Assembly: GCA_008632985.1 (NCBI GenBank)
Contig: QPGO01000170.1
Coordinates: 1 to 64,000, forward strand
DNA length: 64,000 bases
Source: Psammoneis japonica
Taxonomy: Eukaryota
Direction: 5' to 3'
Shown: positions 17,551 to 64,000 of the stretch, piece after piece
Numbering within the stretch: position 1 is the stretch's first letter
Layout of the letters: each line of letters starts with the position of its first letter
The notes under the pieces: generated by a model
What the model saw: the letters and a program-made list of their open reading frames with translations, nothing else
The model's database searches: none
Told to the model about the DNA's origin: nothing
Translations under genes and position numbers: made by a program

Positions 17551-17764
17551 CGTACGATTACAGACAGTTCCAGTAGAGCCTACGCAGGTTCGTACGATGG
17601 TGATTCGTGGGGGCCGTCGGGGCGTGGTGGTGGGGGCTTTTCTGATGACTTCGCCCAGTTTTATTTCCAGGAGTATCCACCACAAACATCACAGAGGGGT
17701 AACAGGTTGCTGCCTTTTGTTTATTGATTGACTTGTGATCCATCACAACGTATTCGTAATTACA

Positions 17765-31500: not shown

Positions 31501-34500
31501 TAAGAAGTGGGACAGACCATGCACCTTGCGTTAAATGCTGTTAAAATCCCAACCCAAGCACCTGCTGCAGACCCAGCTGTGGGAGATGACAGTGCAAATG
31601 TGCAGCCCGGCAACAACCAGAATGTTTCAAGCAAACAAAGCAAGTTAAAGTGGCACTTTAAAGTGACAAATTTGTTGCTTCTTCTGTGTCATTGTGGAGT
31701 TGCTGCAGTGTGTCAAAACATCCTTGTAAAATCCAATGTTGGTGTGAGAGTCCAGCTGGCCATGCAAATTTGCTTGCCAAGAACAAGTTTCAATTTGGTG
31801 CGTGTGCTGTGCAAGCCGGGACGGGAATGTTGGTTTTCACAGTTGCATGTTTCAAAGCCTCAGTTCAGAAAGAAAACAGTTTAGCCAATCAGATTTCCAA
31901 ACTGTGCTTTAGGACATTTCACAATGAGGTGCCAATTTTGTCACATGATGACTGCCGGCATGTGTGAAGAACAGCAAACTGGCCTGCCAGAAGTGTGGCC
32001 ATGTCCAAAGTCATCTGTTTTCTACGTTTTGTGACTGGCCACCAGAGTTGTGACCGACGATGTCTCACATGACAAAACGACATTGCCCAACTCATCCAAC
32101 TTGTCTCATGTTGATCTGTTGTCATGCGGGCCACGTTTTTTTGACAAAAATGTTGTCCTGTGTTGTCAACAAATGTTTTGGCTGACGTCACAATTGTGCC
32201 TTGTTTCGGTGCCACCACCAGAATTAAGACAATCAACTGTGTCTCACAGAGCCATGACAAAATGACATTGCCAAATTTGTCTAATTTTCTCATGTTGATC
32301 CAGAATTTGAAATGATCAATTGCGTCACATGACAAAATGACATTGCCAAATTTGTCCAATTTGTCTCATGTTGATCTGTTGTCAAACGGACCACATTTCT
32401 GCAGGGCACCCTGCCACACACCGAGGTTCCTTGTTTTGTGACCGCCGCCAGAGTTTCAACTGATGAATCCTGCCATGCACCAGCTGGCACCATGCCAAAA
32501 CAACCATGAAAAGCACCTCATCGCTGCATTGAAACACTTGAAAAACAGAGACTCTCTCAACCCACATGCACCATGTCCTTTTGCATGAGAACGATTGACC
32601 AGTGCACAGCGGCGATCTTCTCATTGTCGAACAATGGGCAGCGCATGTCGAGTGCAAAGTCGGAGGTGCAATTTTGTGATGGCTCAAAATGAACACTGCC
32701 ATGTCACACATTTGATTCTTTGGAACAAAGCGAAAACCAAAGCTTTTGCAAAAACACCCAGAGACACAACCCTGCAAGGACTGTTCTCAACATTGCACTT
32801 TAAGAGTTCTTCCAAAGTCCATCAGATCATCTGCCATGGTGTGAAGTTTTGATCGAGGGAGCACAAAAAATTCTGTTGAGCCAGTTTTTTTAAATCACGA
32901 AAAACCGCTTGGCGACAGGTGCAAAAAATTTTGTTCTGAAGGCAAAAAAGTGTGCAATGGTGCTCTGGAGGTCACCCCTGAGCAGGAGGGTTCTCGCGTC
33001 AGTTGCTTTGGGTGTGCAGTGCTTGGCCAATTGCATGAAATGGCTTGAATTGTCTGTGCAGGCCGACACAGGGCTTGCACGCTCGCAATGCAGATGTTTG
33101 GATTTTGCAGGCACATTTCAGTCTCTTTGGGATTTCTGAGAACCCCCCTGCACTGCAACAACTCTGCGCACTGTCAAGCCATTTTGCCACTCAGAGAACC
33201 TAAATCTTGCCACACAAACACCATGGTTCAATGACGCTGCTCACCTGGCAGGCCGTTGTGACTGTGCTCTCCCTCTTCCTTGGAAAACAGGGGCATGTGC
33301 CATTGATGCAAGTTCTGTGTGAGAACAGTGTGCCGCTGGTTTCAGTGGGGGGATCAATCTTTTTTGCAAAATGTTGAGTTGGTGAGATTCAGCGAGACGA
33401 GTGATGACAGCGGATCTTGTGAGAGTGTTTGTGCCAAATTTCTCATTTGTTGTTTGTCTCCTCCTGCAGGCAACTCACGGATCGCTCAACATTGTGTGAG
33501 AACATGCTGCAGATGCATCCACGTCATGAACTGTGATGATTTCATTGTGGACAATTGTTGCATCTCCCATGGCAAGATGCAACTCAAGCTTCGGTGTGGG
33601 CCTCGTGCAGCTGTTGGGGCATTGAACACTGGACGACAAGTGCAGGCTCTCAATGATTGTAGATGACAAAGTTTGTTTTGGGATTGGCAGGGCTTGCCAT
33701 GATGTGATTGGAGTGCCTTGATCTGGGCGACAATTCCATGGTTGGTGGCATCCATGACAAGCTCTGTGGATTGACCACATTGGCCGCGTTTGATGTGTGC
33801 TGCAATCAGTTCATCATGGGCCACAATGATGTTGTGTTTCCACTCCAACGTGAGTCACATTGAAGTGAAATTGAGCATTGTCATCACATCCTGCTCTCAA
33901 AAACACTGTGCATTTGCCGTCAGCCCCTTTGTTGATGAATGCATCCAAGATGCTGGATGTGCTGTCCATCAAAGGACGGCGAGTCTCGCGGTTGTAGAGT
34001 CTAGGCTCTTCTTGCTTTGTGGTCTCAGATGTGCTGTTTGTCCACCCTCCTTGTGTTGTGACAACAGGGTGACAAGTTCCTGGGGACAATGCACCAAAGG
34101 CACAACATGACTCTTTTGTGATTGCACCCCAATGGCAATTTAGGTCCATCTCCATTGTGCTCAGGTTTGGCAGCAACTTTTTTATTGCATGTGAACAGAG
34201 ATGGTTTTGTGTGAACTGCAGTGTCCTTTCAGGGTCACCACAGCTGTTTGTTTCCACATGACAAGCAACCTTCTTGAGACAAGCATTCTGCAAAACACCA
34301 ATGAACTCCACAAGCTCTTCCATGATGGGGGGCTCCACATTTTGCCCAGAGGAAAGATGTTTTGAACATGTTGTGCCAATGCAGACACTGACCACAGTTG
34401 TGGGTCACTGTCAACATGTGCCAACCATTGCTGGAATGCTTGTGCGGGCAAAGGAAAAATGACGTGAGTTCCGAGAACATCGCCCACAGGATTTTTTTCA

Positions 34501-37200
34501 CTTGCTTGGTTCCACGAATTGTCGCTTGTCATGATGGCAAAAGTCAGGGTCGCTCGGAAGTGTAATCAGCTTGCAGTGCACAGCCAATTCAGCCCCATGC
34601 TGGGATCCAAATTTTGCAATGGTTTTGACATGATCGTGCAACACACCAGCCCAAACCAAGTGAGAAGCACAAAGATCACCACAAATGCATGTGATTGTCT
34701 TGATCCACACATCCCTGTGTCCTCCTTGGCTGGTGCTTGTGTTGCGATGCATGTCCTTCTGTAGATTGCGCAGATGCGGTGAACCGTGTCATGATTGAGA
34801 GCCAAAACAAGGGCCGCCACTGCAATGGGGTGGCGTTGCTTGGCAATGCACCCGTCAAAGTGTGGGCCGCCAACTGCCTTTTGATTTGCTCTTTGTCAGG
34901 CTGGCGCTGATTCTTGTGGCTCTCATTCTTTGGCAGCATGGTTGTCTTGTGAAAGATGAGGGAGCAGTGGCTTCAAGTGGTGCTGCTCTGTTGTTGGCCG
35001 AGTTGGCGGCAGCTTGCGAAGACAATGAAATGGTTTGACGGTGTGCAGAGTTGTCGCGGTGTGCTGCAGGGGCATCAACACAAATCCATTTCCAGGTTGT
35101 TTCACACATGTTGTTGTCCAACTCCTTTTTTGCCGCAGGATTTGCCCCTCGGCGTAATTCACACAGCCAAATGTTTGCGCAGAGGCCCCTGATCAGGGGT
35201 CAAAAAAAGGCCTTGTTTTTTACGGAATGAAGGATTCTCGTTTCCTGTGTGTGACGCATGTCGCAGCACAGGCCGGACTGTTGAGTTGTGCAGTGATGCC
35301 TGGGACAGTGCCTTCACAATCATGCGCCAACCATGAACAATTGCCGTCACATTTTCCTCGTTTTGATGCTGGAGCAGTTCAGTGGGTCTTTTCAGTTTCA
35401 ATCCACACAATTTAGAAGCCGTTTGAGAGTGATGACAGCCTCCAAGCATCAGACAAGTGCGCATGCAGCAGTTGAGGTTCTGAATGATGCAGCAGTCAAT
35501 GCAATGAGGGTTGAAGCAACCCCAGAGGACATGAGTCAGAAGTGTGACAATCACAGAGCTCGTTCCAAGAAAGGACATCGAGAACAAGGAGGTTACGAGC
35601 ATTTGAGAGCAGCTGAGAAAACAACATCAGAAAGAAGTGCAAGCACGTCAGAAAATTGTCAAGACGAGTGTCAACAGCAAGACGATTGTCATGACGACAT
35701 TTTAGATTCGATTGCAGAGCACTTTTGCAGAGCGCCTGCACAGTTGGATGGAGGAAAAAGTGGTGACAAGATTCACAACAACAAAAGTTCACGAGCTCAA
35801 AGAGCAGAAGGTGGTCACCGGGCCAATGTCAAGCCACCACCAGGATGGGGCAAAACGCCACTCGCACTCAAGTCGATCAAAAACTTTGCCATGGATGGAA
35901 TGGGTCCAAGTGGAGAAATGCTTCAATCGGCCGCGTGTGTCACACCAACTTTGAAACTCGTGGATCAAGTCCTGGATGACCTGGATGAGTTTGGGGCACT
36001 TGATCACGTGCCTCATTCGCGATTGATTGTGGTGAGCCAGACCAATCGCGCCGAGGGTTGCACAACATCTTCTGACGAGATTGTGGCATTTCTGTCCTCA
36101 AAAAATGATGGCTTGTCCTTCATTGGCTGCACTCACAATTCATTGCCCAAGGTTGGAGAGGCGCCATCGAAGCTGGGTGTCACCATTGGGTTTGCCGCAT
36201 TTGATGAGGTGCACGAGATGGAAGGGATTGGCAAACTGTCTGGATGTGGTCTCCATGACTCATTGATCCCAGTTGATTGTCGCTCATTTCTAACTGCCAC
36301 TCCACATCGACACACGGGCACTCCACAACAGGCTGACATTGTCGGTGGCAAGCTTTGTAAGGATGGCTCGTGAACGCTCATTCCCAACAAAAGCTCAGAG
36401 CACAAAAAGGCTGCTGGTGTCCGCAGTTTTAACAATGCGACCCTGTTTGGACCATGCCTCCCGAAAAAGATGCTGAGTGATGCCGCGAACCAAAACATCA
36501 CCGCTCCAATCACACTTTGTGCGCTGGATGCCGACAAAATTGATGCCGTTCTTGCTGATCCGGTCCTTGATGATTCCATCCCACCAGCACTCTCAAAGGA
36601 CCACCCACTCCCATTTGCAATTCAAGTGGCTTTTCACAAACTCAATGTGAGCAGCGCCGTGTCGCTCCATTCCATGAACTGCCGTGCTCGTGCTTTTGTG
36701 AGTGACGCAGCACCAGTTCTCGAGAAGGACAACATCACCGCATTTGCGGTCAGTGGCAGCTCGGACATGTCACCTGCCAAGCGGGAAGAAATCTTGTCAA
36801 GAGCAAAACGAGCAACCAAGTCGATTGTTGCCAGTTGCAGAGCATTGGCGACCGGCGTGGACGAGGCAGATTGGGAGTTGGCAGTGATGGCAGATCCAGT
36901 CCGAAGTGCCATTGACAAGTGCCAAATGATTGGACGTGTTGGCCGAAAGGCTCCTGGCAAAGAGCGTGGATGCATTTTGGTGCCCTCGCCAACAACTGGT
37001 GATGCTGAATTCATGGAAGATGAAGGTGGCTGTGAATCTTTCACGTTGGCATTCAATGCAATGATGGGATTGGATCCCGAATTGCGGGAGGATGTTGGGT
37101 GCATTTTGGTGCCCTCGCCTGTAACTGGTGATGCTGAATTTATGGAAGATGAAGGTGGCTGTGAATCTTTCACACTGGCATTCGATGCAATGGTCGGACT
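25560..37200. other. Large TpA-depleted block of nested degenerate repeats and gene relics
   Basis: About 11.6 kb with very few TA; TG/CA excess; dense Tyr-free spurious ORFs. Confidence 0.88.
32066..32385 (+). repeat. Three degenerate copies of an approximately 55-bp unit
   Basis: CATGACAAAA(C/T)GACATTGCC...CTCATGTTGATC at about 32068, 32253 and 32328. Confidence 0.85.
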
Positions 37201-37220
37201 AGATCCCGAATTGCAGGAGG

Positions 37221-37660
37221 GCACACTGAATTAATCTCACGCATTGGGCGGTGCCCCTGACCCCACTTTCACCCCAGATTGTCAAAATGTGTAAAACACC
37301 CCTGTTTTGTAAAACGCCATAGCAACAAGCAGCGGCTTGGGTCGTCATGGTGCTTTCGACAGTCGAGTCGAGCAGTTTTTGCTGTTTGCGCATTCAAATC
37401 GCGCGCACTGACAGTGAATGTTTACTTCCGGGTTCCTTCTGGTTTTGTTTCGACAGCCAAACATGACCGACGACTGACCGACGAATGCTCGAAAAAGCCT
37501 GCTACGTAGGATCCTACGTAAGATATAGGGTAATGAGCCAAAATGTGTGTTTTACACGACGAAGCACGTGTTTTACAGAATAACACGTGATTTTACGATT
37601 CCCCCCCTCCCCCCCCTTTCACCGCGAAGGTTGCGCCCAATACGTGCTGTCGTGTTTGTA
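37221..37660. mobile_element. Insertion interrupting the helicase gene, with subterminal 13-bp inverted repeat
   Basis: Coding frame resumes at 37663 (VIDESARLG...); CACGCATTGGGCG at 37238-37250 vs CGCCCAATACGTG at 37634-37646 (12/13). Confidence 0.45.
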
Positions 37661-37819
37661 CTGTAATTGACGAGAGCGCCAGACTCGGAAGGCCTTCGCA
37701 TGACGTAGAATTCCCTTCTCGAGTGCTTGGATCATTCATGCTTCCAGATTCGCTGCCCCTTGAAATGAAGAATGACATCATGAATCGAGCAATCACAGAA
37801 TGTGAGAACCGTGCAAGCG

Positions 37820-39039
37820 ATTGGGACCGAATGCATGAATTGCTTTTGGTTTGCAAAGAAAGAGAGGGTGACTGCAATGTTCGAAGAAGCCATGTCGAGG
37901 GTGGGAAGAACCTTGGAGCGTGGCCAAGCTGGCAACGTCATTTGAGAAAAGCGGGAAAGCTTGACAGTTCTCTCGAGAAATGGCTCAAAGACGTTAACGT
38001 TGCTTGGGATGTTTTTTCTGAACGTTGGGAAGAAATGTTTTGACTCCTCGTCCAACACAATGAATGCGAGGGGGGTTGCGACACACCACAAAGACACAAA
38101 GAGGATGGAAAGAACCTTGGAGCATGGTCAAGCACCCAGCGTGTCATGAGGAATGCTGGGAAGCTTGACAATGTTCTTGAGGAATGGCTCAAACATGCTG
38201 GCATTGCTTGGGATGTTCCTTCTGAACGTTGGGAAGAAATGTTTCGACTCCTCGTCCAACACAAGAAACGCGAGGGGGGTTGCGACGCACCACAAAGACC
38301 CAAAGAGGATGGAAAAAATCTTGGTGCGTGGCCAGTTGGGCAGCGTTTTTTGAGGAATGCCGGGAAGCTCGACAGTGCTCCCAAGGAACGGCTCAAAGAC
38401 GTTGGCGTTGCTTGGAATGTTGCTGCTGAATGTTGGGAAGCAATGTTTCAACTCCTCGTCCAATGCAAGAAACGCGAAGGGGATTGTGATGTTCCAAACA
38501 GACACACAGAGGATGGAAAGAAACTTGGAAGTTGGTTCCACAGGCAACGCGAGAAATGGAAGGCCGGGAAGCTCGACAGTGTCCTTGAGGAACGTCTCGA
38601 AGACGTTGGCGTTGCTTGGAATGTTCCTTCTGAAAGATGGGAAGAAATGTTTGGACTCCTCGCACAACATGAGAAACGCGAGAGACATTGTTTTGTTAAA
38701 CGAAGGCATGTCGAGGATGGGGAGAACCTTGGTGCGTGGTTAAATAGGCAGCGTGCTTCGAGGAATGCAAGGAAACTCAATGACATTCTTGAGGAACGGC
38801 TCGAAGATGTTGGCGTTTCTTGGAATGTTGCTTCTGAATTCTGGGAAGCAATGTTTCGACTCCTCGTCCAATATAAGAAACGCGAGGGGAGTTGCGACGT
38901 TCCAAAAAGGCACATAGAGGATGGGAGGAATCTTGGAGGGTGGTTACAGAGTCAACGCAGAGCGAGAAAAGCCGATGAACTGGATCACGATCGTGAGAAA
39001 CGCTTGGAACAAATTGGCATTCGGTGGAGCATTCGATAG
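37820..39039 (+). repeat. Six tandem 204-bp (68-aa) HA-domain repeats
   Basis: Equivalent positions at 37849, 38053, 38257, 38461, 38665, 38869; consensus WEEMFRLLVQYKKREGxCDVPxRHxEDGKNLGAWLxxQR. Confidence 0.95.
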
Positions 39040-40519: not shown

Positions 40520-41800
40520 TGATGGTTATGCAGCCAACGGAAGTCTGTTGTGAACAAGAACCAACAATCTTTTCTGGTGGGGTTTGCGCACTCAGAGCAA
40601 GTTTCCATGTGTCGTGCTCTTGCTTGCTGCTGCTCTTTGAAATGTGCACTCCAAACTCAGTTCAGGCAGAGCAGTGCATGAGTCCCAAGAGCTTGGTCAA
40701 AACCTCTTGCCTGCTTGTGCCAAGGATTCTCTTTGGGTGCACAAATCCGCCGTTCCTTGCTTGTGCATCCATGGCCAAGAGGGGGGAGAGAGCAGAAAAA
40801 ACCAAAATGGCGGCAAAATGAAAACACACGTCTCAAGTCAAAATTGTCAAAGGACAAAATGACAAAAATGCATCATCTCACTGTGCTTGCCCCACCACAG
40901 CTTTCAAACATTGTTGTGTGTTGCTGATGACACTTTGGCAAAAGAGCAAAACAAGAGAATGGTGCAGCTTTGTTGTTTGTCCAACCCCTGCAGGAGTTCA
41001 CTCTGACACCAAGCAGCAACCTTGGTCACAACAAAAGAGTGGGAGCTTCTTGACAGCCAGCAGGCTGGAGACCACAATGCAAGAATTTGGGGCACAAGAG
41101 AGACCCTGCTGTGAATGGCTTGTTTCTGGTCACATGCAACAGAGAGGGAACACCAGCTTTTTGCAAGGCAAAAATGCCAAGCCAAGCCCAAATGGACGAC
41201 ACATTGCATCAAAAGATTTCACAAAAGCGGAGGATCAATTTGGGGTTTTCCCTGGAGACACCTTTGAAATGTTTCCCTTGTCCTCACCCATCTTTGCTTT
41301 CCACCATGTGTGCCTGCTGTTTTCTCTGTTTGCACACGCGCATCACCATTTTTGGACATCCCTCTTTGTTGTGTGGCTGGTCAGTTCTTTCATCCACATC
41401 ACCGCTGACAAAAGGCATGTGGAAACTCCTGGTGCTGCCTCACACCCCTGCTGAATTCTCCACACTGTTGCTCTCCAATGACCATTGGCATGGTCTCCTC
41501 TTCCTTTGAGTTGGGAAGTCCTCATTGCCAAAAGAAAATCAATGCAAAACTTTTTGTAAAGGACTTGCAGCTGACTGCCACAGGAGCTGTGAGTGCCACT
41601 GTGGTGTTTTCCTTGGGTCTTGCCTGGGTTTGTTGCACACCAAGACTTGCAGCATGTTGCTGGATCCAGCAAAACATGTTCATTGTGTCTTTGTGCAAGC
41701 TTTGTGCTTCTGTTTTCAACTCTTTGACCTGTCCCATTCTTCCATCTTCAACCTTGTCCATTTTTTACAACACCAGTGAATTGTCCTGCGACATCAAATT
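40520..41800. other. TpA-depleted intergenic island
   Basis: About 1.3 kb with only isolated TA, between two intact genes. Confidence 0.8.
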
Positions 41801-48279: not shown

Positions 48280-48879
48280 TGGCAGGAATGAGTTAACGGG
48301 ATTCCGCAGCTTCAAAGACGACTACTAGAGGTGGGAGTAAGGCGACGTGTTGACGGAAGCTGTCAATAGACCTTGATATTGTTTGCTGCGTTACGCCACT
48401 GAATACGGGTAGACGCAACATGAAGTAAACGATCTTGATTTTGTATCCTTTCCCCTTCCGTAGCACTGCTTTAGATTGCACCTCACCATTTTCTTCACAT
48501 TTCTTTTCCACGAATGGTACGAATACTTGTAGCCTTTTCCTATCCTGCTGCGCAGGTCGCTCGTTCTCTAGCTAAAGGAAGCTTGAGTCTGCCAAGCCCA
48601 CTTGCGATGGCGACGGCCGCACACTTGCAGCCAACACCGGTTGCGCACCCAAACAATTCCGCCCCCATGATGCCTAGCGCATCGCACCTTATCAAAAGTC
48701 GGGTCTGCGCAAACAAGGACAAGAAGTGAATTATCAGGCCACACCGTAGCCACACTGCCACGAGAGTCAGCATGCACATTATCGGCGGTTCAAGACAAAG
48801 TCGTAAATCTCTTGTGACAAAAGCTTTGCTTTCACTGCTGAAAGAATTTTGTGTGCACATGATGACAGCTTAAATGCTG

Positions 48880-50820
48880 CAGTGGCTGCAGTTGCTGTTG
48901 GCCACAGTGCCTTTCCCATTGCTGCAAAAACTCTGGTGGTTTCCAGTGAGTGGTTTGCAGCTCCACACACTGGAAGGGGGCAAGCAGACCTCACTCTGCT
49001 TCAAAATCACCCTCATTTGTGATGGATTGCCACCACTGCCATTGACCTCACAGTCATTGAGCTGCTCACTGCAACCCTGGAGAATGATGGTGGAGGTGCC
49101 ATTCATGGCATTTTTGAAAATTTTCTTCTTTGCCAGCTGGCCTTGTGCAACAATCAAGTTTGCTGACCCAGCTGGTCCTTTTCAGCAACATTTTTTGGCC
49201 CCCTTTGTGGCACAATGCAGAACATCATCAGTGTCAACATGCAAGGAGCAGCACTTTTGAGTTGAGGAGCAGCACTTTTGAGTTGGCAAATGAGTGTGCC
49301 AACATTGCCAAAATCGTCTTTTTGGCCTTGCAGAATTGTGCCATTTCTCCAGCACCACATTTTTCTTGTGCTCCTTTTTGTGCTCTTCATCAACTGCTTG
49401 CAGGCTGCTTCACAGCCTGATGTGCTGCACGTGGGCTTGCACCCCCAAGCTTGGCAAAAACATTGATCAGTTTGGCCCTGAGAATTTTTTTCTCTCAATG
49501 GCATCTGTTGCCACAGTGTTGGTGTCTGCATGCATGTGGTCTGGACTTCATTGTGGCATTCTCTCCTGAAAGAGCTGCAACCAAATGGCAGAGATGGCCA
49601 ACATGCTGACATGGCAGAGATTGTCACAGCTGACAGGAAAATCATGTGTGTCAAATGTGGCAGCATCCTTGGGCAACAGCAGCATTGTCTTCTTCAACCA
49701 GCAGTGGCAGATCCTTTCTTGTCATTCCCAAATTCCAGCAGCAAAGTGACAAATGAATGACCAGTGATCAGGAGGTTGTGAGTTGTGACAAATGTGCATG
49801 TCCAACCAAGTGTTGGTGCGATGACATTTGTGAGCTTCTTCTCACAGCATTCTTCGTGGTGCTCTCTTGTCACATTTTGTCACATGTTTCAAAGCAACCA
49901 CTCTCCCTCAGAAAAAAACACAAAGATCAACTTTGGAGATGTTGTCACCATGGGGTGTTCCACAGGTGTCTGGTCTCTCAATTTTGTCTCCTCTGGCAGC
50001 TTGCAACATTGATGAGATTTTCCCCAGGTTGTCAGATTAAAGCCATCTGGGTCATCCTTGTTCCCTTTGTGACATTGCCAAGGGTGCCAGCGAGCTCTTG
50101 ACAGTTGTTGATGTGCTGGCCAAGTGCATGTTTGGCAAGCTGGTGGTGTGCTGGCTGGCCTGCAGACAAACACAAGCTCAATGAGAAATGCACATTGCCA
50201 TGGGCAATGTCTTTGCTTTCTGCACTCTGTGGCTCTTGGCATTTTTGGTGATTCAGTCAGTGCATGTCTGGTCAAGAGGGGGACAAGAGACCAGTTTGCA
50301 GGCTCTGTTTTGGTTGCTGACTGTTGACTGCATGTTTGACAATTTTGCAGCACAATGCAAGATTTTTCTCTACATCCTGTTAGACAATGTCTTGCTGATC
50401 AGGGTCCTCCAACAAGAAACATGCATTGTGGTCTAAAAGCACATCTTGTCAAACAACAAGGGATCAGTTTGTGGGCTCTGTTGTGGCCACCGACTGTTGA
50501 TTGCATGTTCAACATTGTTGTAGCACCTTGGCAGTGCAGACTGATCAGTGTCTTACAGTGAGAGACACACTGCAGTGTGGGTGTGTCTTGTCACCAAGGG
50601 ACAAGGGACTAGTTCACAGGCGCTGCCGGAGTCACTGACTGCATTGATTGCACATTCATCGGAGCCATCACCGCACGACCCTTTTTGTTCTGAGAAAGAT
50701 TTGTCACTGGAGACCGCTGACTGCTGTTTGAGTTGAGCAACTCCATTTCTGTTTCTGTTTTTGTGTTTTGCTGTCAAACGGGAGAGCAGCGCAGAGTGTT
50801 CTGACATTTTACAAAACAGT
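48880..50820. other. TpA-depleted block with degenerate internal repeats
   Basis: Very few TA; GCAGCACTTTTGAGTTG twice at about 49248-49285; three related units at about 50270, 50447 and 50590. Confidence 0.8.
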
Positions 50821-52490: not shown

Positions 52491-53564
52491 TCTTTTGTTG
52501 CATCCGCAAAAGCAAGGACTGTCATGCAACATGAAAGGGGACAAATGTTATGAACCGATGGCATCCATCGCTTGTTGCAGCAGGGACTGGTGTGGTATCC
52601 TGATGGATCGACAATCCTGATAAAACATGCTGTGGATTCAGGATGCCCTGAAACTGAAACCAAAAAACAGAAGAAAACCGCATACCGTACCGCACGACTC
52701 TCTGCTCCATACGCGCGCCCAAGCAAGTGGTCCCGCGTGAAAATTTCCAGTGACTGACTCGACTAAAATGTCTTTTTGCACGTTCCGAAAAGCTGGTGCT
52801 TTCTGCATGAGAAACCAAAAAAAACCTCGACCGTGGTGATGACATTGTTTGTGGTGGCTGCAATGTTGAAGATCGAGCTGGAATCTCATCTGGAGAGTCC
52901 TTTTTTGGAGCATGTGGCATGGAGATTCCTGCAATTTTTCCTTGAGGTGCTTTGGTGCATCTCACGACAACTTCTCACAAGTTTTCGCTGTTGTTGCCTC
53001 CATCCACCAGAGTCCAGCAAAGGTTGCGAAGGAGTCTCCAACCAAAGCGCATGACAGAGTGTGGGCATTTGTTGAGCAGCTCAATGAAAATGGTGCCATG
53101 GCTAGATTTGCTCTTTTGGTTGGGGAAACCACCTCCCAATTTGGAAGTCTCCATGGCATGAAATGCCATGAGCCCAGAGCTCTCAATTGTTGCATCAAAT
53201 GCAGTGCTTTGAAACACACCCAACATCAACTCAACTCAGTTGAAATCCCAGCTTGTGGGTGATGAAAAATCATGAATGTCAAACAAATTGCTGCTTTTGA
53301 CATCAAGGTCCCCAAGTTCAATCCAAATGTGGCAGCACACCTCACAGCTCATGTGCGTGACACACACAAGCATGCTTCTTTTGTTGTCATCACACACTTC
53401 CAACAGATCAAAGTTCACAAAAAGGATGGAATGCAAATTCATCGGTGCATTCATCAGCGGCATTGGCACAATGACATTGATGGCAGAAGCAATCAAAAAT
53501 CCTCATTCATTGCCAGCATTTCTGCATTGCTCAGAATTTGAAATCTGACCACTGCTGTTGAGCG

Positions 53565-53655
53565 TTTGGCTTTCTTTGTGTCAAAGTGGAAATGGCACTT
53601 TAAAATTCACACCAATCATTTGGCTTTCTTTGTGTCAAAGTGGAAATGGCACTTG
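53565..53655 (+). repeat. Direct duplication of a 36-bp unit
   Basis: TTTGGCTTTCTTTGTGTCAAAGTGGAAATGGCACTT twice. Confidence 0.9.
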
Positions 53656-55809
53656 ACAATCTGCGCTGACCATTTGGCTTGCTTTGGCTTGTGAAGTCAG
53701 ATGAAGAGATTGGGTTGTGGGCTTGTCGTCAATCAGCCGCGAGCATGAAATCTTTGCCGCACAAGCCCACCTTAAAGTGCAGACATGTTCCAGCTGCATG
53801 TGAACCAAATTGTGCACACAACAGGAGTCATTCAAAATTGTTGCAAGAGCCACAATTGGCATTTTGCATGAGGAAAATGCCAAATTGTGCGGAAATGCAC
53901 ACAATGTCATGCAAGAGGGTGACTGGGGCTGCTGACTTTTCAGGAACTCAACTGAAATGTCATCTGATCAAGGGCATTTTGATTTAGATGGTGAAGAGCA
54001 GTGCCCTTGATCAGATGACATTTCAATTGATTTCCTGAGGAGTTGATGTTTGAGTGCGGATGGGTGGACAGACTGATGACAAATGTTTCTGGCACTCTTC
54101 TGCACAATTTCTACGTGATGACTCTGAGAGCCACAATGACTCCCATTGAAAACAACAATTTTTGCAATTTTTGCGCAGTCCCTGGCTTGCGATCGAAGTT
54201 TCACCACCAAAAAAGATTCGCGTGAATGTCAATGTTTTGCAACACACTGACAAGACTTGTGCAAGTGTTGCAATGTCATGCTTTTTGTGCCATCTATGCT
54301 TTTTCATTGCGATGAACAAATTGCAACACAATGGATGATTTTTGGCAAAAAGGTTGGAGATTTGCACATGTTGCATGTTTGCATGACAACACAAAATGTG
54401 CATTCACGATGCTTTCCAGCAGATGTTCTGCTGCACCTGCACGGGAATCTTTGCACCAAATGCAGTGTCACACAATCAGCACTGAGTCCATGCACAGAAG
54501 GAACTCACAATGCATGCAATGTGAGGACTTGAATGCCACCAAAAAAACAACTAAACTGTCCATGCGCTAAACACCTGCAAAAACGCATCTGCACAAGCAT
54601 TTTTTGTGAAAATTCCACATGCATGACAGACACACAATTTACACTCAGAATGCATTGTCGTTTTGTGTGTCACCTGGGTCTGATTTGTTGTCCATCATTG
54701 TCAAATCAACTGTGCCTCACTGTGAGTGGTCAACAGCAATGATTTCAGGTGTCTGGAATTGACAACAGAGTTTTTGAAGCACTTGAGATGCCTCAAGCTG
54801 CTTGACTGGAGGTTTTTGGTTGGTCGGGCTTGTCTAACCAAACCAATGCAAGAAGCTCTTTTGGCAATGTTGCAACCACTGACACTCCATTGTTGGTGCA
54901 AAACTCACCCAAGCCAGTCATCTGGAGCTCTCAAGCTGGTTTGTCCACGCTGTTCTGTTGCCCCGGCACTTGTTGCATGCTTTGGGGCTTGATGGAGAGC
55001 CAAGTGCAACCCAGTGCATAATGGCCAATTCCACAATTGAAGCTCAAGCATTTCTGCAAAATTGCAGTTGGTGCAAAGAGACCATGGTCTGGAGCTTGTC
55101 TGACCTTGACAATGGATGCATCTGCCTGAGTCTGCCTTTCCAGCCACTGAGTGAAAAAACTGAGTCTCACCTGCTTCATTGTGAGATGATGGCACACTTT
55201 TGCTTGGTTTCTTTCAGGTTAAAAAGCCCTGAAACTGTGAAAAACACAACATCAAACTTGAAAATGACAGAGTTGCTTAAAACAAGAGCAGCCGTTGATG
55301 CAATGGTGCCGGCCCTCAAATGACCTGCAGCTCCAATGTGCAAAAACCAAGTGTAAAAAATGCTCTCTTTGGCCAGCAGAACTCTGGAAAGTCCCACCCC
55401 AACAACAAAGAAGTCAAAAACAAAGGATTTTGACAGCAACAGCAAAACAAAAGAAAATGTTGCAAAGCTTGCCTTTTGAGTGCTCACCTCACAACACATG
55501 TTCTGGCATCTGACTCATGATCAAAGGCATCAAAAGCAATGCTCTTGTCCAAAATTCAAATTTTGCAATGATTCTCTTCAGAACAACTTAAAAACATCAC
55601 TTGGGTCCAATTTTGCATCATTTTGTGGTGCAGTTGGGCAATCCATTTAACAACCTTTGGCATTTTTCTCTTCTGTTCCATTCTCAAATGTCTCACAAAT
55701 GGCACAGGGCAGGTGGATGCTCAAAATCATTGAGTGTCAAGGCACAAAATTGTGCAGCAAACTTGGTCATTTGTTTGATGTTGAAGACAAATGTGTTTGC
55801 CACTTTTAA

Positions 55810-55888
55810 TTTTTGCACTGTGGAGCTTGCACACAGAATTCTGTGGGCCCAACATCACATGGAGTCCCACCCAGGGCTGGAACATGTC
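55810..55888 (+). mobile_element. Degenerate terminal fragment of the MITE family at 740-1561
   Basis: GGAGCTTGCACACAGAATTCTGTGGGCCCAA...GTCCCACCCAGGGCTGGAACATGTC aligns to 1069-1135. Confidence 0.8.
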
Positions 55889-56835
55889 AGCAACTGGAGC
55901 TTCTGTCTGGGTGCAACTTCCACTTGTGACAAGCAATGGGGGATTTTGCACCAGTCCTTCAGGTTTGCAAGCCAGAAACAAGAAGTTTTTGACAGCTTTC
56001 AGCCAAGAAAGGTGCATGTTTCAATGAAAGAAATTGCGGCAGCTCTGTGATGTCTTGTTGAGAGTGAACTTGCTGTTTGTTGCCAGAATGTTGCACGCTC
56101 ACCATGGTCACCCAAAAAACTCCTTTGGCTTGTTGAGCAACAACTTTGGAGACCGACAATGTTGCAGGATGAGGTGCTCCACACACAGTGTTGGGGTGCA
56201 AAATGTGTGCATGACATCAACACACCAGGCCCACAGCTCTGGTGACTCCTGTTTCATGCAGTGTGAGCACCATCAATGGGATGCATGATGTGACAATGCA
56301 CAGCACCACTTCCTGTCAGGTGTGTGCAGGGTTGTCAAGTTGTGAGTGGAGCCCATGAATTCACAAACACATTTGTGTTTTGGCCTTGAGGGAGGAACAT
56401 TCTCTGTGTCATCCACTGCAAGATTCATGGTGTGCTGCCACTCTGGTTCAGTGCAACCTTGGCATTGAGAAAAAAAAAACCAGATCTGTGTCATGAGTGC
56501 TGTCATCACTCCTCTGCCAGCCAGGCCAGCACCAGCTGACCCACACTTCCAGCACACCATCAAGTGCGGCAGAAGCTTGCGGGGATCAGCTGGACAGGGT
56601 GTTGCCAGAAGAAGGTGGTGCCCAACCACAACAATTGCAAAGGAACAAAGGAACAATTTGCACATGGAATTTGTTGCACATTTGTTGGCAACCACCACAG
56701 AAGGCACGCCACAGATGCAAAGGACAATCGCATTTGGACAGGTTTTTAAAATGGTCCACAAAGGGAGCCTTGAAGGTGGGATGAGCAGGTCATTGGAGAA
56801 AATGTTCATGGCACATAGAAACAACGCTGAGTCTT

Positions 56836-57273
56836 GTGCAGAAAAGCCAATGTGAGCAGCAAACCAAAGACAATCAAATGGCACCACAGGATGACTTGCA
56901 TTCTTGCTGAAAAGGGTCGCAACAGAAGCAGCACATTTTCACCACAAAGAGTGAAGCACTTGATTGCACGGCAAAGAAAAGAAGAGAGGTTGAAGACCAA
57001 TTGGCAAGGACAAAAGCAGTCCAGAGAAGTGACACGTAGATGGTCAGTGGCAACACTTGTGCAGAAAGACCAATGAGAGCAGCAAATGGACGACAATCAA
57101 ATGACTCCAAAGGACAACCAATGTTCTTGCTGAAAAGGGCTGCAACAGAAGAGGCACTTGCACCACAAAGAGTGAAGGAACTGATTGCACGGCAAGGAAA
57201 AGAGGCAGCATTGGACACCAATTTGCAAGGACAAAAGCAGGCCAGGGAAGTGACATGCAGATCATCAGCAGCA
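56836..57273 (+). repeat. Tandem duplication of an approximately 223-bp unit (coding-like relic)
   Basis: Two aligned copies starting GTGCAGAAA at 56836 and 57059; both translate to ...PQRVKxLIARQxKE.... Confidence 0.85.
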
Positions 57274-58379
57274 TCTGCAGATCCACGTGGAATTTGCACT
57301 GGAACCTGTGTAGAAAATTTTCTGAGACAACAGAAAATTACAAGAAATGACAACCAGCATGCAAACCAACAGGCCTCAACACTCGTCATTTTCCACTGAT
57401 GAACTTTGCTCATCATGCTGCAACAAGGATGTGCCATTGGCAAACATGGACATGGACAGAATGGGTTTGTTGGAGCCAAATCAGCACCGTCTGAGAACAG
57501 CAACATCAGTGCAAGAACACACATAGAAGCACACACAGGAGGTTGCCAGTGGGTGCTTGCACAGAAGAGTGTGACCTTGGCATTGAGAAAGCCCAGGGGG
57601 TCTGAACTGGTGTGCATCATGTGTGATGCACACAATTCAGGGAGCAAAGTCAAGGTGGTGCAAATGAAACTTTGGGCCAGATTCTGCACGTGCAGAACTT
57701 GTGCTGTGCTGGACACAAAACCGCTTGGACTGCCATGACTGCATCTCTGGTGCAAGTTGCACTTGGGACAGAGACAAGTGGCATTTTGACAGAAAGCTGA
57801 GAATCTGCTCTCTCAAATGGTGCCTTTGTTGTGTTCTCTGGTGCATTTTTAGAGCAAATTAGAGCCCTTCAAAGTTGAGGTGACGTGCATTTTGCACAGG
57901 CATTTGTGTGAAATGATGCACAAATGAAACTGCACTTGAGATTGAGGGTGCACACAATGGGGTCATTTTGTGCATTCAGAAACTCACTCCAATGCAATCA
58001 GCAGGCCACAGTGTGGCTCTTGTGCTCAAAATCAAATGCACAGAATTTCCCTTTGACAGTTGCTGATGGAAAAGGGCAAGAAATGGGTGCTTGCCTGAGG
58101 GTGGCCAGAGTGATCAGATCCATGCACCAACAGGAAAGAGCAGGCCAAAGCTGGAAATGTCCTGCACCAAAGTGTGTTCTGGATGTTGTGAGAGATTCTG
58201 AGCTGGTCTCATGTTTTGGCTGGGATGGAAAATGATGGATTCCAACAAGTTGACAAAACTCTGCAGAGCTGCGGAAGATTTCCATCACAAACTGTCAAGA
58301 AGATGCAATGTCTTCAGTTGTGAGGTTCCAACATCAAAAGGGAATGTGGGAAGATGTTGAAGAGTGGAATCATGACAAC

Positions 58380-61300
58380 ATGTGAGTGGGGAGATGCAAC
58401 GAGACATGGTTGACCATGACCCAGATCTTTTCTGCACATTGAGTTTTCATGAGGAGGCAGTCTGCCAGTTCACTTTCTGTGGGGACCCAAACAAGCAGGT
58501 GATGACCTTTGTGCTGACCCTCACAGACATGTTGGAAACGTTGCTTGACGTGTCTTGTGCATCAAGTCTGTTGGTCATTCTGAGCCATCAGAGCTGCAGC
58601 CTGATTGTCCAACATGATGGCAGGGGTGGTGGTGAGACGTTGAGAATCAATGGAGCAGTGGTGGGTGCCAAGGGAGGTGAAGTTGCAGGCCAACATTTGC
58701 AGGTGAGCAACTGCCATGGCACCAGTGCAGGTGCCCTGTGCACTCTGATTCTGCAGTGGACATTGCCACAGGGGTTGTGACAGTGGAGTTGGCTTCCACA
58801 ATTGCCCCATTGAAGAAAGCCACAAACCAAACAGTTGACTTGGCAGTGTCCAGACAGTCTTGCCAGCTGGCATTGGTGAAGACCACAAATTCAGAATGAC
58901 TGATGTTGTGGGCCTTGCAAATTGCGTGAACAGGGCTTTCCACAGGATCAGAACAGAATTTGATGGCAAGGTCTTGATGTTTCCATGGACAGCTGAAGAG
59001 ATGAACAAGGGTGTCAAAATCCTTCATGCCAGGGTTGGTGCAAGCCTTTGTGACTTTGCAGGTGATCCACAAAATGTTGGCATGGGTGTTTCAGGCAAGA
59101 TGTGGGATGGAGCAGATGGCAGATCAAAAATGGAGACAGGGAAATTTGGTCGCAATTGCCTTGATGTTGGCTTCATCAGTTGGTTGGTTTGCCTCACAGC
59201 ACATGCAATCAACCAGAGCTGGGGTGTCTTGAAAGCTGGGGCTACCCCAAGGTGAGTCCAGAGTGAGAAAATGCTTGAGGATGTTGCAAATGTAGCGGTG
59301 TTGGTTGAGGGAGAAGGATCCTTCCTCACAACAATGAATGTGCATTTGCAAGAATCAGGTGATGTTGCCAGTGAATGCAGTGTTGCACTTGGATGCAATG
59401 TGATTCTCAAAATCTTTTTCTGCATGATTGTTTGATCCAAAACAGCATCGTCTGTGTAGAATGTCAATTTGAGACATGAGCCATTGGAGAAGTGCTTGGC
59501 AAAAAAGGTGGGGTCAGCCTTTGAGTTGGCGCATCCTTGAGCAAGCAAAATTTGGAGAGCTTGGTTGACCACCAGAGGCCACTTCAGATGGTCCCACACA
59601 TGCCCTTCTTGAGTCTCAGAGGAACACCAAAATGTTCCGAATGCTTGGGGGGAAGCATTGCTTTGGGATCAAATTGAAGCAGACAAAGAGACAGCTGTGG
59701 GCAGGAGCCTGAAGGCAAGCACCAATGAAGTCACCATTCTTGATGTGTTGTTTTGCTTCAGCAACAAAAGCTGAGAACAACTTGATGGCAAAAGACAAGG
59801 CATTGGGTGACCAATTGTTGTCATTGTTGGATCGGCACTGCATGTCTCCATGTGCGCAGTGGCAAGCCTTGAGTTTCTCCAAAGATCCATTGGGCTTCTG
59901 TTTGGCATGGAGAGCAAGGGTGGTGCCAATGATCTCATCATCTGGGCAAGGGTGTTCATGAAGAGTGCAGGTCTCATCATCCACGATGAGGCGTTTGAGC
60001 TCAGAGCCAACAGCACACAGCCATGCATCACAAATCACGGGGGGAGGTTGTCTGAGGATGGCTGGCAAAGAGCAAGGAACAGGTGAGCAGTCATCAATTG
60101 GAACAGGAGAAGTGTCTTGGCGGCTTCCAAGGCCTGTTGCAATGGGTTGGGACACTTGCACCAGTGCAGGCTTGTTCCATGTCAAGTGAGTCATCAAAAA
60201 ATTTTTGCTCAAGGTGATCAATTGGGGAGGTGGTGGATGCAGCGTGTGAGTGTTTTTTGTTGGCAAAGCAAGCTGCAGTGAGTTTTCTGGCATTGGGGTG
60301 GGATGAACGGCACAAAGCAGGAGGAGCATCATTGACAGAGATTGCCAAGTCAGAGTTGGAGGCATTGGAGTCCAAAGTGTCCACATCAAGGATGGTGGGT
60401 GAATCAATGTCAAGAAATTCTTGGATGGTGCCAGCATGCTCATCAACGGGTGCATTGTCATGGTTGGTGAGTCCAGAGGAGCCAACAGGGAGAGCTCCGG
60501 AGAATGGGATGTGGTCGTCGTGCACCAAGGACAATTCAAAGAGTTCATCGAAATGGACATCGCATGCAACAATGAAATGTTTTGGCCTGACACCTTTGGG
60601 GCATGCATCAAGTGGCCAGCCTGATTGGGTGCAAAACCAACATGAATGCCACAAGATTGATGTTGGAGCAGTTGTTTGGTGGTGGTTGGGCAGCCGGTTT
60701 CTGGATTGAGTGGTTGACACACCTGTCAAAAGTGACAGGACAGCCAAAAACTCGGAAATGGCTGATTTTTGGGTCTTTGTTTAAGCATGGAAGTGAGGTG
60801 CAGAGAGGGAGCCATCCGGCAATCAGACACCTTTGACCAGGAGCACATTCAGCATTGCAGCGGCGTGGAGGAATGCATGGTGACAAAAATGGGCCAAGAG
60901 GCAGTCATTCACAAGAAGGCATCACATCATGTTTGGCATGACTTGCCACATTCTTTCACTTGTGCCATTCATTTCTTGGTGATGGGGAGCGGCGATTTCA
61001 ACCTTGACGCCATTTTCAGCACCAAAAGAAAGGAATTTGTGAGAAAGGAAAGGTTGCTCAGAGTTGGCACAAATGAAGTTTCCTTCACTTGGCCAACAGC
61101 TTGGACTTCGGCCATCCAAGACTTGAAAGTCACAATGATGTTGCTTGTTGTGGGACTCTCAAGACCACGGACACCACTGCAACAGCATCCTTTGTACGCA
61201 GCCATGAAAAGATGGTGCAGAAAAGATGTGCTGGGGGCAAGAGCAACATTGTGTGGGTTTGGAATTGTGCACATGAACACACATGGAAAAGTGTGCTCCA

Positions 61301-63300
61301 GTTCAGTTGGGTCACACTCAGCATGATTTTGTTTCCGTGACATGGCAACATGCACACTGTCCAGACAGTTGTCAGTCCGGGGGGCAATGTGGCAGTTGTG
61401 CCAAACTTTGCCAATTGTTCCAGCCAAAAGACCTGCAAGGTCAAGATCAACGGCGGCAACCTTCAGGGTTGAGGAGGGTTTGAGAGAATGTGCACCAGTC
61501 TCAACAGCATTGGCATCACTGGGAGGGGAGTGGTTGGTGGATGCATCATGGCAAGAGTGCTTGTGATGAAGCATTGGGAAGCTGAAATTGTGTCCATTGC
61601 CAAAATCGAGCTTGGCTGTGTTCGTCGTGACATGCACATTGAACAACTTGTCAGCAGTGAAAGCAGGGACCAAGAATGGGTTCCGGTTGAGACCAGGGAT
61701 GTGACACACATGTTCAGGGATGAGGTTGACAGGGCATCCTTGATCATCTTAGAAGTTCAGGGTGATGGAGCCAACTTTTGCAGCATGGACGGCAGCACTG
61801 TCTGCAATCATGACAAAAAACAACTTCATTGTCAGGTGGTTGCACTGTTGAACCAACGTGTCAATGGCAGCAAAAGGGAATCTTGTGAAGCTTCCTCCAC
61901 TCTTGACACACCTGGAAGATTGTTCAATGCAACTTTGCACACTGGGTGGATTGGTTTTAACAGATGCTTCCCAGCACCAATGAGAATGGTTGGCACACCA
62001 GTTGACTCACTCTAAAGAGTGAGAACACTTCATTTCAGGGACAACAGTGCGATGACAAAGAATGCATTGTCATCAGATGGGCCACATCAGGAGATGAACA
62101 TCCATGGACTTCAACTGTTTTCGGGTTCTCTGACACCCTCGTCTAACTTGCTCTGACACACTCCTGCCACTCACTCTGATTGTTCGTCCAACACTTCTTG
62201 GGCCACAACATGGGTTGGAACATTGCCTCAAGGGACAACACTCCACCTTGCACGTGCATTGTGGAGAACATCATGAGGTTTTCTCTCAATTTTGACCCCT
62301 TCAGCAAAATGCCACACATCTTGTTTGTTGTTTGAGCAGTGCCACGTGTCATCAAATGCATTGGCAATGCCCTTCACATAATCAACAAATGTCATTGTAA
62401 AATCTTGTCTGATCAATTCTTGCTGTGCATCACTCAGCATGTCATTTCGGCCATCTAAATGTTTCACTCGTTCTTGCATCCACTGGTGAATGGCGCTTGG
62501 AGTCAACATGAGGAAATCCACCGCGTGCACAACCCAGCAATGCTTTTGTGCATCAGACACAAATTTGATTGTCGTTCCAAAGAACATCAACAATTTCAAT
62601 GCATTGAACATGACTCCATTCTTGTCTTTGACAAGCTTGCAACAATCCAGATGCTCAGCAGTGTGATTGTGGCCTGGACGCATCAGTCCGCTGCATTCCC
62701 TGAGTTGGTCCATGCCAATTGCCGGCACACCTTGCAACCATGACACCTTTGCCATGCGGTTGATGTCTGGCCTTTCAAAGGCTGTTTTTGCAGGGCTCCC
62801 TTGCCCCTGAGCAAACAATGGCCTTACCTCATTGTGACTTTCTGGCCTTTTTGCCAGGAATTTCCAACAGGATTCACAGGTGTGCACCACAATGCTCAGC
62901 CACCTTGTCCTGTCTGTGATGGTCTCCATTTTGTCACAGACAGAGATCATTGGGGTTGCAGTGGATGCATGTCCCCGCATCAGCGGTGTCCATGTCTCAC
63001 GCATTTCAAACACAGTCACCATTGCTTTGAGCCTTGCACAGCATCTCTCTTTCCACTGCAAGTTGTGTGCAATTCAGTGCATCTTGTGCTGGAACAGGGT
63101 TTGGTGATGGTGGTCTTCCTCCATCAAGTTCTCCTCTCCTGTTTGGGTCAAAGGAAGGATGTGACCTCCTGTGCCAAAAACCTTGCAGGTCTTGCACTCT
63201 TCCATGTGCTTGCTTGGCATGCTGCTCAAATGTTGTGGTCTTGTTTCTGTTCCACCAATCTGTGGGTTGATTGTCCACAATGAGCTCATCTTTCTGAACA
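58380..63300 (-). mobile_element. Degenerate Ty1/copia LTR retrotransposon (gag-like, integrase, RT, RNase H)
   Basis: Integrase APHHQEMNGTSER, HFRVFGCP; RT LEKLKACHCAHGD, DFIGACLQA, FYTDD; RNase H FTNASWQDC...PVAMSTAESEC, LDNQAA; copia domain order INT-RT-RH; LTRs not resolved. Confidence 0.9.
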
Positions 63301-63617
63301 AACAGATCCTTGTGTCAGACAGGCATCTCAAACATCTTCACAATCTCAAGAAAACAATTCTTGGGCCAGCCGTCTGACACCTTGTTGTGCTTGTTGAAGG
63401 TGACATGCTCACAGCACGTGCATTCATCAAATGTGTGAGCATCGGCTGCTGCCATGTTTCCATCAAAACCTCTGGCTTCATTGCCATCCATTGCTTGATT
63501 GTGTGCTCAGTGTCACTTGCACCATGTTGCTCTGGGAGAAGATTGCACGTTTGTCATTCTCTGGTTTGCAGGGTCTGTCATAAAATGGGAGTCCACTCAT
63601 GTTGCCATTGGATCTGG

Positions 63618-64000
63618 CACCCCATTGCGGCTCATTTGCACTTGCAAAACTTCTTGCCTTGCAATGGTTTGGTCATAAAATCCCCGATCATTGCATCTGC
63701 AGGGCAGCATTCAAAGGGCAATCTTGTGTTGAGTGCCCTTGACCATTTGCCAGCACTTCAACAACCATTGGTCTCCAACAAGATTGTGCTCTTGTTGTCC
63801 TGGCACAGCATGTTCTTGACAACAGGAGGTCCTTGGTGTTCCACAAATGGTTTTGTCCCAGGAGCACAGTCGCTGCATTGTCAACTCCAACCAGTTCAGC
63901 TTCTGTGCTGCTTTGTGCATTGAGCTTCTGTCTTCTTGACATGGCTTGCATTGCTCCATCATCCATTGTCGTCACCGCTCCAGTGTGGCTCTTGAAGTTT
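63618..64000 (-). mobile_element. 3' end (RNase H) of a second, distinct Ty1/copia element
   Basis: KSHTG...QKLNAQSSTEAELVGVD, QDNKSTILLETNG, DFMTKPLQG. Confidence 0.9.

Follow-up and report, generated by a model that had tools for sequence, protein, structure and literature searches.

In the diatom Psammoneis japonica, a stretch of 64,000 nucleotides (contig QPGO01000170.1, positions 1 to 64,000; in the following "the window") consists of gene islands that alternate with blocks of extreme dinucleotide distortion, in which the dinucleotide TpA has become rare. We found that the 120 TA sites left in these blocks share a flanking context: the operative arrangement is TA followed by a purine and then A on one strand, without two pyrimidines at the same positions on the other. 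This context is probably the footprint of a sequence preference of the process that rewrites TpA to TpG or CpA in repeat-derived blocks. Such a quantitative flank rule is a new property of a process that is otherwise almost undescribed; it is drawn here from one window and 120 sites.

Blocks were called by a two-state hidden Markov model (HMM) on TA density, which found seven depleted blocks. Together they cover 32,126 bp and hold 120 TA, 624 CG and 7076 CA+TG, whereas the normal DNA (31,874 bp) holds 1197 TA, 1872 CG and 4631 CA+TG. TpA density is 3.7 per kb in depleted versus 37.6 per kb in normal DNA, and CpA+TpG is raised in the depleted blocks. By arithmetic from these counts, about 1090 TA and about 1260 CG were lost over the whole blocks against a gain of about 2400 CA+TG. 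When the deeper blocks were followed in 2-kb steps, the observed/expected ratios were 0.02–0.08 for TA, 0.13–0.48 for CG and about 1.6–2.2 for CA and TG.

An earlier reading of the sequence had listed residual TAs in TCTAC/GTAGA and in TCTA/TAGA words and had proposed that these, together with TTA/TAA, are protected. All listed positions proved correct (16/16 and 9/9, respectively), and all three word classes are more frequent among residual TAs than among the TAs of normal blocks: TCTAC/GTAGA with 16/120 versus 48/1197 (odds ratio (OR) 3.7, p = 1e-4), TCTA/TAGA with 42/120 versus 136/1197 (OR 4.2, p = 2e-10) and TTA/TAA with 84/120 versus 482/1197 (p = 5e-10). The terminal C adds nothing to this, as 16 of the 42 residual TAGA sites read GTAGA compared with 48 of 136 in normal DNA; the protected word is therefore TCTA/TAGA. 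The list was also incomplete, since TAAA is equally protected and the other flank counts too. Taking TAAA and TAGA together (TARA, with R for purine and Y for pyrimidine), 92 of the 120 residual TAs carry this word on at least one strand, compared with 295 of the 1197 gene-island TAs (p = 2e-29). Conversely ATA/TAT is depleted (15/120 versus 535/1197, OR 0.18), and ATAT as well as ATAC/GTAT are missing from the depleted blocks altogether (0 versus 81 and 0 versus 183 in normal DNA). The statement that protection is not absolute was borne out: CGTAGA at 57035 aligns to TGCAGA in its tandem duplicate.

Every TA can be described by two half-sites, each being the two bases 3' of the A on one strand. 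Among residual TAs the half-sites AA and GA are over-represented 3.6-fold and 3.2-fold, and TC, CT, CC and TT are under-represented at 0.05–0.18-fold. This bias is seen whether the comparison is made with gene-island TAs or with the sequence that flanks CA/TG within the depleted blocks. In the 240 residual half-sites RA accounts for 45% and YY for 4%, while behind As of the same blocks that are not preceded by T the values are 18% and 22% (binomial p = 1e-21 for the RA excess, p = 3e-14 for the YY deficit). The original prediction had named agreement with background composition as the outcome that would speak against it; with this test run, the residual contexts do not match the background.

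The contrast is sharpest when both flanks are considered. RRTAYY occurs 0 times in depleted and 122 times in normal DNA and RTAY 4 versus 372 times, whereas YTAR is found 60 versus 190 times, YYTARR 28 versus 38 times and TYTARA 16 versus 21 times, so that the last two stand at 74–76% of normal density. For the RR__YY frame the sum of TA, CG, CA and TG cores is nearly the same in both kinds of DNA (523 normal, 534 depleted), and the loss of 122 TA and 92 CG (214) is balanced by a gain of 225 CA+TG (CA +107, TG +118). It follows that the ancestors of the blocks had near-normal numbers of RRTAYY, all of which were converted, and that YYTARR was mostly spared. The bias is a difference in conversion and not in ancestral content.

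Both flanks count, and they act independently of each other. When one flank is RA, survival depends strongly on the other: 11/13 with RG, 33/77 with YR, 27/79 with RY and 5/105 with YY. Thus a YY on the other flank destroys the protection by RA. A two-flank model in which the factors of six flank classes multiply agrees with the 21 pair classes (deviance 23.0, 15 df, p = 0.08), the factors being 1.08 for RA, 0.50 for RG, 0.42 for CA, 0.27 for RY, 0.26 for YG and 0.035 for YY. A model with only one biased flank was favoured at first and then dropped, because the other flank splits survival strongly and the graded two-flank model fits.

The context bias is replicated within the window. Of the residual TAs in the large blocks 1–3286, 25539–37121 and 52765–64000, 21/25, 32/45 and 33/40, respectively, have at least one TARA (each p <= 1e-9), compared with 21–36% of TAs across six normal blocks; YY flanks are rare in 25539–37121 (3/45) and 52765–64000 (2/40). 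Flank-specific survival in one half of the window correlates with that in the other (Spearman 0.81 and 0.85 over 16 flanks), and the bias is stable after trimming 300 or 600 bp from the block edges. The 13-mer context is unique for 119 of the 120 sites, and among the 16 TCTAC sites only one pair (1081/1215) is clearly paralogous. Residual TAs do not lie in less mutated patches: CG density within 50 bp is 2.05 at residual TAs and 1.82 at CA/TG sites (p = 0.5), and the sites are unclustered (median nearest neighbour 66.5 versus 81 bp, P = 0.13). Context-free creation of TAs from the present block sequence predicts 87, 31 and 2.5 sites with RA on no, one or both flanks under any transition bias, and 28, 76 and 16 were observed. 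The bias is therefore not explained by the composition of the background, by new mutation without a context preference, by paralogy or by patches that mutated less, and the shared context that had been noticed is real and large.

The direction of change could be read from conserved tyrosine codons in two degraded coding regions (Table 1). In the helicase gene copy, whose homologues P0001–P0003 are 44–52% identical, nine alignment columns have Tyr in at least 2/3 homologues; the window has Cys (TGY) in five of them, His (CAY) in three and Tyr in one. The other region had been described as a copia reverse transcriptase (RT) whose FYTDD box keeps its Tyr, encoded by TTC TAC. We can confirm this: the codons lie at 59456–59461(-), frame 1 reads LTFYTDDAVL, and the read-through of 58659–60113(-) gave seven protein matches at E <= 1e-5, the best five of which carry PF07727 (Ty1/copia reverse transcriptase; E = 4e-70). 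Pfam itself recognises no RT in 58659–60113(-), nor did it return a transposable element domain in the 47 open reading frames (ORFs) of the depleted blocks or in three read-throughs of 2666 residues. Of 18 conserved Tyr columns in the copia remnant, we used the 12 at which the window reads Cys (8), His (3) or Tyr (1); the remaining six (I, F, R or L) were left out, as they lie partly in a frame-shifted stretch.

Altogether we counted 22 conserved Tyr codons: nine come from the helicase copy, twelve from the copia RT/RNase H, and the last is that of the YxDD box, which lies in another reading frame. Of these, 13 now read TGY and 6 CAY, and only 3 are kept. TA is thus ancestral and TG/CA are derived. 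The 3 kept codons are all TAC followed by A or G. In a manual tally none of 11 TAY codons was kept before a pyrimidine versus 3 of 11 before a purine (Fisher p = 0.21), which is the predicted direction in small numbers. The YxDD site has one flank of class RA and one of class CA, a combination with a fitted survival of about 45% (13.5/30); given this value and the fact that the element is dead, no selection is needed to account for the kept catalytic Tyr. As an estimate, the 13 Cys versus 6 His could reflect a 2:1 excess of changes at the coding-strand A, which is not significant. The ORF 59619–60725(-) is without a homologue and is probably a spurious open frame, because the process removes TAA and TAG stops.

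Table 1. Positions of the depleted blocks, of the degraded coding regions and of retained TA sites in the window.
Feature	Position	Strand	Length	Dinucleotide content	Basis or remark
TA-depleted block of short repeats	1..3286			25 TA, 103 CG (CG far less depleted)	HMM
Small TA-depleted block	15698..17552			1 TA	HMM
TA-depleted block	25539..37121		11,583 bp	45 TA	HMM
Hypermutated DEAD/Helicase_C gene copy	35297..37234	+			Pfam; one in-frame stop
Retained conserved Tyr codon TAC, followed by G	35594..35596	+			proven survivor
Small TA-depleted block within the HA-domain repeat gene copy	37707..38696			1 TA	HMM
Small TA-depleted block	40528..41765			1 TA	HMM
Small TA-depleted block	48872..50809			7 TA	HMM
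TA-depleted, repeat-derived block (main region)	52765..64000		11,236 bp	40 TA, 130 CG, 2581 CA+TG	HMM
Degraded Ty1/copia reverse transcriptase-RNase H remnant	58659..60113	-			protein matches, stops read as X
Retained conserved Tyr codon TAC, followed by A	59292..59294	-			proven survivor
GTAGA, retained Tyr before DD of the RT catalytic box	59456..59460	+			minus strand TTC TAC
CGTAGA/TCTACG words in depleted DNA	831, 1081, 1215, 1452, 2280, 2547, 32023, 54112, 57037				

Sequence from outside the window added little to the question of ancestry. Among 40 listed of about 1340 places at which contigs of run X1 differ from the window, 7 carry TA in the other copies but CA/TG in the window, about 11 carry CG and a single one is reversed, too few for a test by context. 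The alignment of the helicase copy against metagenomes returned three short contigs of normal TA content at 22–47% protein identity, which are useless for ancestry at the DNA level. Window words are next to absent from runs X2 and X3, and a degenerate 31-mer from the high-copy repeat had no matches in the metagenome scans. The six duplicate pairs inside the window differ by 41 transversions, 21 other transitions and 51 TA- or CG-type changes; they are too old and too short to yield a spectrum by context.

CG is also lost from the depleted blocks, down to about one third, with a pattern unlike that of TA: 76% of CG is kept in GCGC, 17% in ACGA and about 17–23% in ACGA/TCGA-type contexts, and no effect of RA on CG survival was detected in these blocks. 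Deamination of 5-methylcytosine turns CpG into TpG/CpA in methylated repeats and cannot remove TpA. In positions 1–1500 the three 500-bp steps hold 3, 5 and 7 TA, a depleted level, but 30, 17 and 25 CG, which is close to normal; most of the other blocks are poor in both. This indicates that TA loss and CG loss are separable processes or episodes.

Regarding the contents of the window, the depleted blocks hold the copia RT remnant, a high-copy repeat and the helicase gene copy, next to neighbouring genes of normal TA content. The ORFs of the gene islands are long and intron-poor (PDZ, bZIP, copper ATPase, 3-hydroxyacyl-CoA dehydrogenase, Mad3/BUB1). A helicase with HA domains is present in the window as well, with five HA-domain matches in ORF 38044–39039; the HA domain has undergone a large expansion in diatoms. 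Between two depleted blocks and inside the helicase/HA-domain gene copy, 37122–37706 forms an island of normal TA content (22 TA in 585 bp), and the block boundary at 38696 falls within the HA-domain repeats, so that one part of this gene copy is hypermutated and another is not. The hypermutated helicase copy also contains a tandem duplication of about 125 bp (36967–37220, 89.6% identity), the repeated peptide of which starts with GCILVPSP. In the main depleted block, the contigs of run X1 give 52857–57926 a summed word depth of about 970–9400 in 8 of 10 bins, compared with about 62 for single-copy sequence; it is a high-copy repeat family with many short X1 contigs and joints, and further copies lie at 1040–1260. 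A single N occurs at window position 1296.

The pattern of survival would be accounted for by a mutator that hits every TpA at very unequal rates. It would act fastest at RTAY and best at the palindrome RRTAYY, would be about four times slower for each side that reads TAR (judged from natural logarithms of the survival figures), and would have a rate near zero for a side that reads TAAA or TAGA (TTTA or TCTA on the other strand). As the two sides would contribute independently, a TA would persist wherever TARA on one side is not opposed by TAYY on the other, and TYTARA would be almost untouched. The likely cause would be the local preference of an enzyme that works at the DNA level and at a symmetric site, as a dimer or strand by strand. 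One physical reading would rest on base stacking, in that an A before purines would be well stacked and hard to flip, while an A isolated between pyrimidines would be easily flipped. The attacked base may be A, by deamination to hypoxanthine, or T. We tentatively suggest a more specific version, which could be true though we do not expect it: that the mutator is an undescribed enzyme reading duplex DNA, which recognises RRTAYY as a dimer or per strand and converts the central T:A pairs with a specificity unlike that of ADAR, TadA/ADAT or APOBEC, the near-immunity of TYTARA being its fingerprint.

Several points weigh against a preference of the mutating process as the origin of the context. 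The first is the logic of the strands, which is incoherent. According to k-mer excess TARA was lost mainly to CARA, which gains 9.6 and 4.5 per kb versus 1.3 and 1.8 for TGRA. This conflicts with the four TARA losses of known polarity, of which three led to TGRA and one to CARA, and four further comparisons of uncertain polarity are split 2:2. Secondly, a binary split into RA and non-RA flanks gives 28, 76 and 16 sites with no, one or both RA flanks versus 36, 59 and 24 under independence (p = 0.002), and this non-independence vanishes only once the graded model lets the RA factor saturate at 1. CGTAGA/TCTACG words are retained beyond the prediction of the model. Given the age of the blocks, a part of the residual TAs may have arisen later. 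Furthermore, the classes RA and YY were defined after viewing the pooled data of these 120 sites from a single window, and the gene islands of this window, most of which is coding sequence, had to stand in for the ancestral TA contexts. Avoidance of stop codons lowers TAA and TAG in the islands somewhat, far too little to produce the effect, and the survival percentages are accordingly approximate.

Strand-specific protection by the 3' RA flank was dropped as the k-mer excess and the direct events disagree. A choice of product by the flank was examined in a manual tally of 19 Tyr codons, in which fits and contradictions were about equal for either strand model. Regional editing of a single strand as the source of the one-sidedness was rejected, since there are no runs of orientation and no tie to the local CA/TG skew; along the elements the orientation of the TARA flank changes in 34 runs versus 38.7 expected (P = 0.16). 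What the flanks influence may be how the entire site is recognised.

Alternatively, most residual TAs could be new, having arisen after the erasure by mutation with a context bias of its own (C-to-T at T-Y-C-A, equivalent to G-to-A at T-G-R-A, UV-like at dipyrimidines or APOBEC-like), so that the context would describe the making and not the sparing of TA. The blocks are old enough to have collected many ordinary substitutions, as the transversions and the transitions of neither TA nor CG type in the duplicate pairs show, and with 7076 CA/TG precursors a few per cent of transitions would create over a hundred TAs. A binary model with one biased flank does fit the counts of RA flanks (28/76/16 observed versus 25/82/13, p = 0.2), and TGRA of the window at 58987 and 58995 corresponds to TARA in three and two other contigs, respectively, with uncertain polarity. 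We nevertheless regard this origin as unlikely. It leaves unexplained the complete absence of RRTAYY together with its exact balance into RRCAYY/RRTGYY, and the density of YYTARR and TYTARA close to normal would be a coincidence. One-sided creation also predicts otherwise for the second flank, which is strongly non-random (5/105 for YY versus 11/13 for RG). The three residual TAs whose ancestry can be tested are all conserved Tyr codons and hence survivors, none being demonstrably new, and creation without context is rejected by the counts given above.

It is quite unlikely, in our view, that the mutator itself is blind to context and that TARA/TYTA is shielded by a base modification such as N6-methyladenine or a thymine modification, by a DNA-binding protein of high abundance or by the DNA shape at junctions of pyrimidine and purine tracts. 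The original prediction had left the choice between an enzyme and a protecting factor open, and from the sequence alone an intrinsic preference indeed looks the same as shielding; a preference of the process in this wide sense is supported. Almost complete sparing of TYTARA (16 versus 21) resembles an on/off effect. Likewise CGTAGA/TCTACG, with 9 occurrences in depleted and 9 in normal DNA, retains its CG and its TA in DNA that is poor in both, which could be the mark of a site that is bound or modified. Several of its copies read (C)ACGTAGAA. However, six of these nine words lie in the related short repeats of 1–3286, where CG is little depleted anyway, and 1081/1215 is an inverted duplicate. 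The effect is graded across the 16 flanks instead of on/off, CG next to survivors is not co-protected, and no sequence information was found beyond about -2 to +3 around TARA survivors. The lack of an extended motif, together with the lack of clustering, favours an intrinsic local preference.

A by-product of selection or ancestry (required Tyr codons, which would concern TAY only, motifs of once active elements, or copies of one ancestral site) is very improbable: although the Tyr of the RT YxDD box and two other conserved Tyr codons are kept and an inverted duplicate accounts for 1081 and 1215 as one site, conserved Tyr codons were lost in 19 of 22 cases in genes that both carry stops and frameshifts, Tyr codons have a pyrimidine at +1 and so the opposite of the enriched context, nearly all sites have unique 13-mer contexts, the orientation of TARA flanks shows no runs, and the 47 ORFs of the depleted blocks contain no recognisable Pfam domain.

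A preference of the mutating process itself has consequences that reach beyond this window. So far one preprint, of 2026 and on a different alga, describes hypermutation that erases TpA. The proposal that the flank context gives the process a searchable signature holds, and a hexamer test (RRTAYY gone, TYTARA kept, balance into CA/TG) separates the process from generic TA poverty in any genome. For candidate enzymes the flank rule is a direct biochemical read-out; judged by what bacterial TadA and amphioxus ADAT2 prefer, it speaks against a simple specificity of the ADAT/TadA or ADAR kind. In gene islands YY follows TA in 33% of cases versus 21% after other As, and RA in 13% versus 17%. Since YY, the best context of the mutator, is thus the commonest one after gene-island TAs, the genes are without its footprint and the process must be tightly confined to repeats. 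If the suggested undescribed enzyme exists, the same fingerprint should be found in Bigelowiella and other lineages, and its gene should be findable by phylogenetic profiling.

The closest known system is that of Bigelowiella natans, in which, according to the available part of the preprint, integrated giant-virus and virophage DNA undergoes A:T-to-G:C hypermutation restricted to TpA, with episodic, roughly 1000-fold raised mutation rates in Bigelowiella lines (Mettrop et al., bioRxiv 10.64898/2026.01.13.699255). The process in the window is of this kind. As far as that part describes it, both systems change TpA to TpG or CpA on both strands, leave low TpA and raised CpA+TpG in the long term and are restricted to mobile or foreign DNA, the adjacent genes being left untouched, here in seven sharp blocks. 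Here, however, the lineage is a diatom (stramenopile), the targets are transposon-derived repeats and gene copies, and the depletion is deeper, with TA at 2–8% of expectation in the deeper 2-kb windows versus a Rho of 0.45 reported in the accessible text for the Bigelowiella region of nucleocytoplasmic large DNA virus (NCLDV) origin. The words "context", "flanking" and "trinucleotide" do not occur in the accessible text of the preprint, and a preference for RRTAYY over TYTARA is not described there. A literature search, with subscription journals outside its scope, returned neither a flank dependence of TpA hypermutation nor such a process in diatoms.

TadA/ADAT is the candidate enzyme class named in the accessible part of the preprint (Mettrop et al., bioRxiv 10.64898/2026.01.13.699255). 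These enzymes deaminate an adenine next to a 5' U/T, and T at -1 is present here too. For off-target mRNA editing by bacterial TadA the available text gives the consensus UACG, extended YUACGAA (PMC11472039). TadA thus wants a pyrimidine at -2 and C-G at +1/+2, whereas a pyrimidine at -2 protects in the window (60/190 for YTAR versus 4/372 for RTAY), and TACG is intermediate, with a density of 9% of normal versus 1–2% for TACC, TACT, TATC and TATT. Amphioxus ADAT2 (BjADAT2) acts on DNA with the context GAA for A and TCG for C (PMC10354150); it differs in that GAA lacks the 5' T. This comparison covers specificity only, and not whether a diverged relative is the enzyme.

ADARs likewise change A to G on both strands of repeat-derived sequence and favour U 5' of the edited A, as cited in the available part of the preprint (Mettrop et al., bioRxiv 10.64898/2026.01.13.699255). 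The window differs in that its blocks include DNA that does not look transcribed and have sharp edges. ADARs act on double-stranded RNA, favour a 3' G and disfavour a 3' U, and to our knowledge they come from animals only. In contrast, TAG outlasts TAC and TAT here: TAT/TAC half-sites are lost most and TAG/TAA least, with depleted/normal counts of 6/45 for CTAG, 25/87 for CTAA, 4/109 for GTAC and 0/81 for ATAT.

Hypermutation in a TCG context is described for Pucciniomycotina in the portion of the source available (PMC3318451). The process in the window also resembles the repeat-induced point mutation (RIP) of Neurospora and other fungi: to the extent that the available sources cover RIP, both consist of repeat-directed transitions with a dinucleotide core and neighbour preferences, and both distort sequence block-wise beside normal genes. 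RIP converts CpA into TpA and therefore creates TpA. It is classified as a C-to-T process in the accessible text of the preprint (Mettrop et al., bioRxiv 10.64898/2026.01.13.699255). In the window the chemistry is reversed: TpA is destroyed, to one tenth of its normal density, in a direction that is fixed by the conserved Tyr codons.

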